Assembly (NCBI GenBank): GCA_910592345.1
Contig: CAJVPI010000214.1
Span: forward strand, 1-42,060
Source of the DNA: Paraglomus brasilianum
Taxonomy: Eukaryota
DNA: 42,060 bases
Direction: 5' to 3'
The notes beneath the pieces are model-generated. The model did not search any database. It was not told the origin of the DNA and saw only the letters and a program-made list of their open reading frames with translations. The position numbers were made by a program, and so were the translations under genes. This document shows positions 39,927 to 40,420 of this stretch, piece after piece. The first letter of the stretch is position 1. Each line of letters starts with the position of its first letter.

Positions 39927-40197
39927 TAAAGGGTGAATTTCTTTTTTTAATTTTGGCTACTTGCCTTTGACGAATTCTTAAATCATATTCTTGGTTGCAA
40001 GGTCAACTAAAACTTAAAACTGGTCCAAAATAAGCAAAGTCATTTCTACATCAATGTTTCTTTTCTTTTAACAAATTTCATAAGTAATTTAGGCGACACA
40101 TAATTTTATAGGCCAATTGACTCTGACTAATCTTCCGTGGTACTAATATTTTCTCTTTTCGGATTTCTCCGGGATAAATAGGTATTATTCTAGTCAT
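39927..40197 (-). pseudogene. higA: Bacterial HigA-family (HTH/XRE) antitoxin pseudogene
   Basis: ATG at 40197 gives 'MTRIIPIYPGEIRKEKILVPRKISQSQLAYKI'. Across frameshifts it continues 'VKKKRNIDVEM', 'AYFG', 'F*LTLQ', 'EYDL', 'EIHPL'. This follows the HigA pattern PxHPGEIL..E.L.P..SQ..LA...KR.I...YFGT...W..LQ..YDL. Confidence 0.85.
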
Positions 40198-40208
40198 AAT
40201 ATCTTAAT

Positions 40209-40420
40209 CTAGTGATAATCGGCTGTTTCTACTTCAATACGCTTTGCTTTTTCTCGGTAAAACAAATTAGATATTGAGGATTAATGCTAATTGTATACCG
40301 TCCAGCTCGATCACCCTGTAATTTATGTAAATGAGCGTCAAAAGAGAATTCTAACCCATTTAATTTCTCCCACTTTACTCTCAGGTCTTCTTTGTATGGA
40401 ATCGGTGGGGGTTTTATCAC
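40209..40420 (-). pseudogene. higB: Bacterial HigB-family (RelE-superfamily killer protein) toxin pseudogene
   Basis: GTG-initiated 'MIK...HLHKLQGDRAGRYTISINPQYLICF', then after one frameshift 'IEVETADYH*'. This matches HigB 'LHKLKGDRAGQYSIRINDQWRICF.W......VEIVDYH'. Confidence 0.88.

Follow-up and report, generated by a model that had tools for sequence, protein, structure and literature searches.

The window analysed here, a contig of Paraglomus brasilianum taken over its whole length of 42,060 bases, carries near one end the remains of a bacterial toxin-antitoxin gene pair of the higBA family. The remains extend over approximately 460-470 bases of the minus strand (about 40366-39905), with the toxin gene higB preceding the antitoxin gene higA, and the contig ends 1.7 kb past them. 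The relic and its surroundings comprise the following features.

35061..36552 (5' limit approximate), plus strand: the closest host gene with introns, encoding a coiled-coil-like protein without Pfam hit; the end of higA lies about 3.35 kb away
39080..39270: MITE-like element with 37-nt terminal inverted repeats (92%)
39344..39401: repeat copy in the left flank; the other copy, 37994-38051, is 84-88% identical
39563..39602: short repeat in the left flank, matched by many other contigs in every run examined
39905..40197, minus strand: higA relic with its ATG kept, from alignment to intact relatives
40198..40208, minus strand: intergenic spacer of 11 nt, same length as in locus L088
40209..40366, minus strand: higB remnant, limited to the 3' half (roughly codons 44-95, where an intact HigB has 95-98 aa), from alignment to intact relatives
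40229..40420, minus strand: 63-codon chance frame (P0001), in which unrelated upstream DNA is fused to the higB core
40367..41897: right flank, with little coding under code 4 and unmatched by donor-like contigs

On the minus strand, the higB stop codon TAG is read at 40211-40209, followed by the spacer at 40208-40198 and the higA ATG at 40197. Toxin-first order, the distance of 11 nt and both codon positions are therefore as given in an earlier annotation of this DNA (hereafter the sequence-only reading). That annotation placed an operon at 39927..40420. The higBA derivation holds, but homology starts only near 40366 and higA runs on to about 39905-39915, and what is left is a 5'-truncated fragment. 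The first ~43 codons of higB were undetected in 1.5 kb of upstream DNA, where 56-191 of 200 shuffles matched the best score with all five relatives used, as well as in the 200 bases adjoining the relic (11-143 of 200 shuffles). At the opposite end, alignment of the last ~12 higA codons was no better than that of shuffles (40-203 of 300).

Comparison with five intact pairs reveals seven indels and two nonsense codons within about 460 bases, and the earlier statement that both genes are broken is borne out. The single indel of higB is a 1-nt deletion near 40263. It shifts the frame between the L-H-K-L core and the terminal D-Y-H codons, and the core histidine and D-Y-H thus lie in two different frames; no single protein of the relic contains both the catalytic His and the terminal Asp-Tyr-His. 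Six indels affect higA, near 40102 (1 nt), 40081 (1), 40036 (10), 40025 (1), 39994 (+1) and 39953 (2), along with nonsense codons near 40070 and 40008. Approximately the first 32 higA codons are still open, as is the 63-codon hybrid frame P0001, which lacks both HigB termini. It is this frame that had been taken for part of higB in the track of open reading frames: the higB core is indeed there, but the rest is upstream DNA. Because the first ~43 HigB codons are absent and frameshifts follow, the window copy can specify neither a complete HigB nor a complete HigA. It is a relic derived from the higBA family and not a working member.

At columns invariant among the relatives, mismatches of the relic are distributed over the three codon positions as 15/91, 13/118 and 10/47. 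Since intact L088, left out as an outgroup in the same way, gave an equally flat pattern (21/112, 16/134 and 11/58), this comparison is silent on neutral decay, and the evidence of death is the lesions themselves.

The family assignment was approached by profile search, as the sequence-only reading had suggested. Pieces of the relic stay under the cut-offs: the 70-aa stop-free higB piece reaches 16.9 bits with PF05015 (E=0.0093, cut-off 27) and the 39-aa higA piece 15.9 bits with TIGR02607 (E=0.0084, cut-off 47.7). Intact relatives, in contrast, pass, with 42.2 bits for L088 HigB (PF05015) and 84 and 96 bits for HigA proteins (TIGR02607). Among 48 stop-free pieces of at least 26 aa from 39600-42060, three gave weak Pfam hits, of which HigB is the only relevant one. 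At the nucleotide level, blastn aligned the relic with L083 (77% over 342 nt, E=7e-66) and L088 (71% over 457 nt, E=4e-53), and its local score against intact relatives was 433.5, while the maximum of 200 shuffles was 132. On these alignments, homology to higBA is far beyond chance.

The first blastn against plasmids retrieved one record, a Synechococcus higBA junction (67% over 187 nt), and direct search with the higB piece matched only itself. A profile-free scan of 1.84 billion representatives with the same piece yielded ten hits. Eight long repetitive proteins among them were set aside as likely compositional; the ten also included P0004, an intact HigB of 98 aa with 62% identity. Search with P0004 in turn retrieved 24 proteins, of which 13 (P0004 and P0011-P0022) form a tight group with 67-84% identity to P0004, the remaining 11 reaching 43-54%. 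The contigs that encode the tight group measure 0.5-10.9 kb and all stem from ENA, JGI or Logan. The nearest clade is absent from the GTDB scan, where none of the best 80 of 323 confirmed matches exceeded 52%. Scanning of metagenomes gave ten loci (L082-L091), seven of which (L082-L088) belong to the clade.

Clade loci share 70-78% nucleotide identity with the window, and this similarity is confined to higBA. In amino acids the relic is 54-59% identical to five intact pairs and at most 41% to the other 82, and intact relatives are 69-82% identical (18-31% different) among themselves. In the IQ-TREE phylogeny the window groups with L082, L083, L084, L086 and L088 at 100/100, with L088 as its sister at 94/94; input consisted of 148 columns (3' half of HigB plus HigA) and 88 rows, and the bootstrap had not settled. 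Seven of 94 loci are omitted for want of a complete adjacent pair, including two clade members, L085 and L087, whose contigs do not extend past higB. The phylogeny that the sequence-only reading called for thus places the window within a clade that reads TGA as tryptophan (see below), though with no clade member among those best 80 GTDB matches. L088 also shares with the relic the 11-nt spacer and a short higA start, whereas spacers of the other four relatives measure 12-14 nt.

A larger bacterial insert was considered and set aside: our searches and L082-L091 match higBA only, although decayed donor DNA from unsampled genes would escape such comparison. No match was found by blastn of 40400-42060 against plasmids, and the 74-aa piece at 41564-41785 had no relative among longer proteins, viral contigs or the ESM Atlas.

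Outside the clade, L089 shows a peculiar organization. In this metagenome contig of 60% GC, near-identical pieces of one gene (putatively ScpA-like, by its motif) recur at least five times between 5400 and 16500, and toxin-antitoxin and other small cassettes, including two higBA pairs, lie between them. The stretch looks like a cassette array that arose by repeated integration into one gene.

We wondered what kind of organism carries the intact pairs. The seven clade contigs have 29-37% GC, three of them within 29-33% and four at 34-37%. Ten intact clade genes contain 14 TGA and 2 TGG tryptophan codons, TGA being read as Trp at conserved sites, and lineages in which TGA means glycine are thereby excluded. 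Code-4 frames of at least 100 aa cover 50-96% of the contigs and code-11 frames 0-72%, code 4 giving the higher value in seven of seven. HigB of the clade measures 95-99 aa and HigA 108-112 aa. Eight proteins that cluster with clade HigA (P0043-P0045, P0051-P0054 and P0056) are only 69-73 aa long in the protein collection, which fits table-11 translation halting at a TGA Trp codon.

Neighbours of the clade pairs include long coiled-coil proteins and small membrane proteins. In L082 (1095-2988) and L087 (3-870), a coiled-coil protein and a small Trp-rich membrane protein lie upstream of higBA, and L084 (1735-2331) and L086 (1193-1669) have a protein in common downstream. Such sharing suggests a conserved mobile cassette. 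One of the seven contigs, L085, has a gene for a XerC/D-like recombinase upstream of higB (PF00589, E=2e-16). A viral carrier was also considered: three viral contigs encode HigB, with only 35-42% identity, and none was found for the L085 recombinase.

These properties were compared with those of Mollicutes-related endobacteria (MRE; Ca. Moeniiplasma). According to PMC10507103 and PMC11423566, as far as their text was available, MRE genomes use the Mycoplasma code, have 29-33% GC and are rich in XerC/D recombinases, pseudogenes and phage-like regions. Annotation in supplement 6 of PMC10507103 lists HigB of 92-100 aa (11 rows) and HigA of 108-111 aa (3 rows), from MRE of Rhizophagus, Benniella and Linnemannia, and according to supplement 4, the phage-like regions contain antidote, HigA and killer genes. 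Since the genetic code and protein lengths agree with published MRE, as do the GC content of three of the seven contigs and the XerC/D neighbour of one, the donor is very likely an MRE, annotated MRE HigB and HigA being comparable by names and lengths only; no MRE marker gene was seen on the clade contigs (1.2-4.1 kb). The intact pairs form a compact clade of TGA=Trp higBA modules tied to probable MRE mobile cassettes. The sequence-only reading had pointed to Mollicutes-related and Burkholderia-related endobacteria. The former agree with an AT-rich, TGA=Trp clade, but the sampled Burkholderiales pairs (L066 and L078) fall outside it and we rejected this origin; the tree rows do not include Mycoavidus or Glomeribacter.

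Well-studied HigB-HigA of Proteus vulgaris Rts1 (PDB 4MCT) and the Pseudomonas putida system 6F8S, which we take to be GraTA, have in common with this family the toxin-first order, L-H-x-L core, terminal D-Y-H and P-I-H-P-G-E-I start of HigA. Intact relative P0047 matches 6F8S with E=3e-13 and 4MCT with E=2e-5. Unlike these systems, the window copy carries frameshifts and is without the first ~43 codons of HigB. HigB-1 and HigA-1 of MRE (PMC10507103) have similar lengths and occur in phage-like regions with XerD, a likeness of names and lengths only, from which identity would have to be presumed.

Further, we examined the surroundings of the relic. Several fungal genes lie elsewhere in the window: a Ge1/EDC4-like WD40 protein (6340-11502), a SAP-domain protein (20961-23291) and mitochondrial ATP synthase subunit d (27021-27425). 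The spliced gene that had been noted about 3.4 kb away is indeed present, ending at 36552, with GT..AG ends at the inspected introns, and one contig of run X21 retains only ~48 bases of 35601-35801, as expected of a spliced copy. At 37181-37795 (minus strand) there is a frame of 204 codons that ends in an acidic low-complexity stretch and gave no Pfam hit; X21 contigs cover it at high depth. Fungal transposon relics nearby, also proposed earlier, are substantiated in part: the Tc5 DNA-binding piece at 31688-32239 gave a weak PF03221 hit (E=5e-4), but the Tc1-like piece at 38293-38520 (minus strand) gave no Pfam hit and is a putative Tc1/mariner transposase by its motif. The MITE-like element has internal 17-nt repeats and termini beginning with TA.

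Repeats flank the relic on both sides. Repeat copy 37994-38051 abuts the part of the contig that holds the spliced host gene, and stretches 40711-40762, 41647-41705 and 41863-41897 of the right flank recur in other contigs. Code-4 frames cover 18-24% of the relic flanks.

To see the locus in other material, assembled contigs from six runs (X1, X3, X4, X5, X9 and X21) were compared. The sample of X1 and X3 is possibly the window's own source; X4, X5 and X9 come from two other soil studies, X5 and X9 belonging to one of them. Single contigs of X1 (39236-41892) and X3 (39420-41676) show 0 differences from the window, and a 1181-bp contig of X9 covers 39420-40540 with 2 substitutions and 3 gaps, none of the gaps inside the relic. 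No differences were found either in X5 (40096-40346) or in X4 (40289-40745), the latter crossing the upstream junction. Two other soil studies thus yielded contigs with these lesions, and across samples the flanks vary as little as the relic itself. The X1, X3 and X9 contigs all join the relic to repeat 39563-39602, and that of X1 also holds a copy of the repeat family abutting the spliced host gene. Recurrence of the lesions in other studies, together with the 1181-bp contig that holds both the relic and a host repeat, makes an assembly chimera unlikely. Near-identity of the relic across studies, when intact relatives differ by 18-31%, fits inheritance with the fungal nuclear genome.

No contig of these runs holds both a host exon and the relic; pieces break at 38043-38418 and at 39115-39236, contigs of X1 and X4 doing so inside the MITE-like element. 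Depth of X1 contigs is 34 on the relic and non-discriminating, since it spans 26-108 across unique pieces. X21 has no cover over the relic, a gap without evidential weight because this run appears diverged and is possibly an RNA sample. A 151-bp soil contig of X4 matches 40143-40190 with 4 differences in 48 bases and may stem from a second copy or from the higA gene of a living relative.

Taken together, we consider it probable that a broken higBA fragment of an MRE was taken into the fungal nucleus and has decayed there as a non-functional, NUMT-like insert. Instead, a living endobacterium could carry the relic as a pseudogene, repeats having led the assembler to link it with fungal DNA. MRE genomes are indeed rich in pseudogenes, and their contigs are concealed within fungal assemblies (PMC10507103, PMC11423566, in the parts available), the relic lies near a contig end and no contig reaches from it to a host exon. 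Such an origin nevertheless appears quite improbable to us: single contigs of X1/X3 and X9, from two studies, join the relic to widespread repeats, one family of which abuts a host gene, the flanks are not gene-dense under code 4 and do not match the neighbours of the donor clade, and the relic hardly varies between three studies, in contrast to the divergence of its intact relatives. The sequence-only reading, which likewise saw decayed bacterial DNA on a fungal contig, a view that homology to intact pairs, lesions and bridging contigs uphold, had relied on the disrupted state as an argument against contamination. This argument is weak because MRE genomes are themselves full of pseudogenes; pseudogenes and repeats make up 7.3-35.2% of most of them, according to the available part of PMC10507103. 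Stronger evidence comes from contigs of other studies that bridge relic and repeats, and from flanks that are non-coding and carry repeats.

The source of a nuclear insert might also be a different bacterium with TGA=Trp, or one of its mobile elements, rather than an MRE of this fungus. Donor-like contigs are short, higBA modules move widely between phyla and the link to MRE annotations is by names and lengths only; we still regard such a donor as unlikely, given that code and lengths, the GC of three contigs and the XerC/D neighbour of one fit published MRE and that TGA at conserved Trp sites leaves no room for TGA=Gly lineages. That the fungus has co-opted the fragment, for example as a source of a short peptide or small RNA directed against the symbiont, seems very improbable. 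About 32 higA codons and the 63-codon hybrid frame are open and the sequence is identical across samples, but seven indels and two nonsense codons have accumulated in ~460 bases, the equally invariant flanks mean that conservation is not specific to the relic, and of the residues critical in Proteus HigB, equivalents of Asp90, Tyr91 and His92 are out of frame (PMC5027501, in the part available).

NUMTs and Wolbachia-to-host nuclear inserts are fragments of resident cytoplasmic genomes, inserted without selection and decaying among repeats. The relic differs from them in its fungal host, its probable mollicute-type donor and in being a single piece of 470 bases, no larger insert having been detected. 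Proteus HigB is a ribosome-dependent mRNase in which His54, Asp90, Tyr91 and His92 are critical (PMC5027501, in the part available). By analogy, donor HigB would have been a ribosome-dependent mRNase held in check by HigA, an HTH antitoxin, and from what is known of the family the pair may have served for addiction or stress response as part of a mobile cassette, in a phage-like XerD-bearing region of the MRE genome. In the NUMT-like capture that we favour, DNA released from the symbiont would have been caught at a chromosome break without the start of higB. Because no higB start and no recognisable upstream region are present, the toxin probably either arrived dead or lost its 5' half later. 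The lesions would then have become fixed or spread in the fungal species.

Transfer from MRE to host has been reported in Diversispora epigaea (Sun et al. 2019, as cited in review PMC8227670), in the same direction and from the same inferred donor as proposed here, and the relic is a further example, in the form of a dead higBA fragment. Genes acquired by D. epigaea (RNase III, Uma2 and HNH endonucleases, a methyltransferase) were suggested to be of benefit, as far as the review's available text goes, whereas the relic is dead, unannotated and 5'-truncated. In the accessible parts of the respective papers, Li et al. (PMC5982333) found no MRE donors in Rhizophagus irregularis and Ciach et al. 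(PMC11291939) named Burkholderia-related ones. We found no toxin-antitoxin relic of a fungal nuclear genome described in the open-licence literature, including the available text of PMC5877345, PMC13315312, PMC10386755, PMC7732545 and PMC4916391.

Reported exchange between MRE and fungi mostly runs from host to bacterium. The transfer screen in PMC10507103, according to its available part, began from annotated proteins, and a dead insert is invisible to screens of this type. On the reading favoured here, the relic shows that symbiont DNA enters the host genome without benefit, and that this fungal lineage once met this symbiont clade. At about 30% divergence from every intact relative found, it may record an extinct or unsampled symbiont lineage. 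By itself a 470-base relic is functionless, and its value is that of one data point for a genome-wide count of inserts. We tentatively put forward the possibility that MRE DNA rains into nuclei of Mucoromycota in a way similar to mitochondrial DNA, and that the resulting small dead inserts are numerous but escape screens based on genes. If this is true, such inserts would constitute a datable fossil record of the symbiont lineages that each fungus carried, and would provide a direct test of early versus late MRE invasion.
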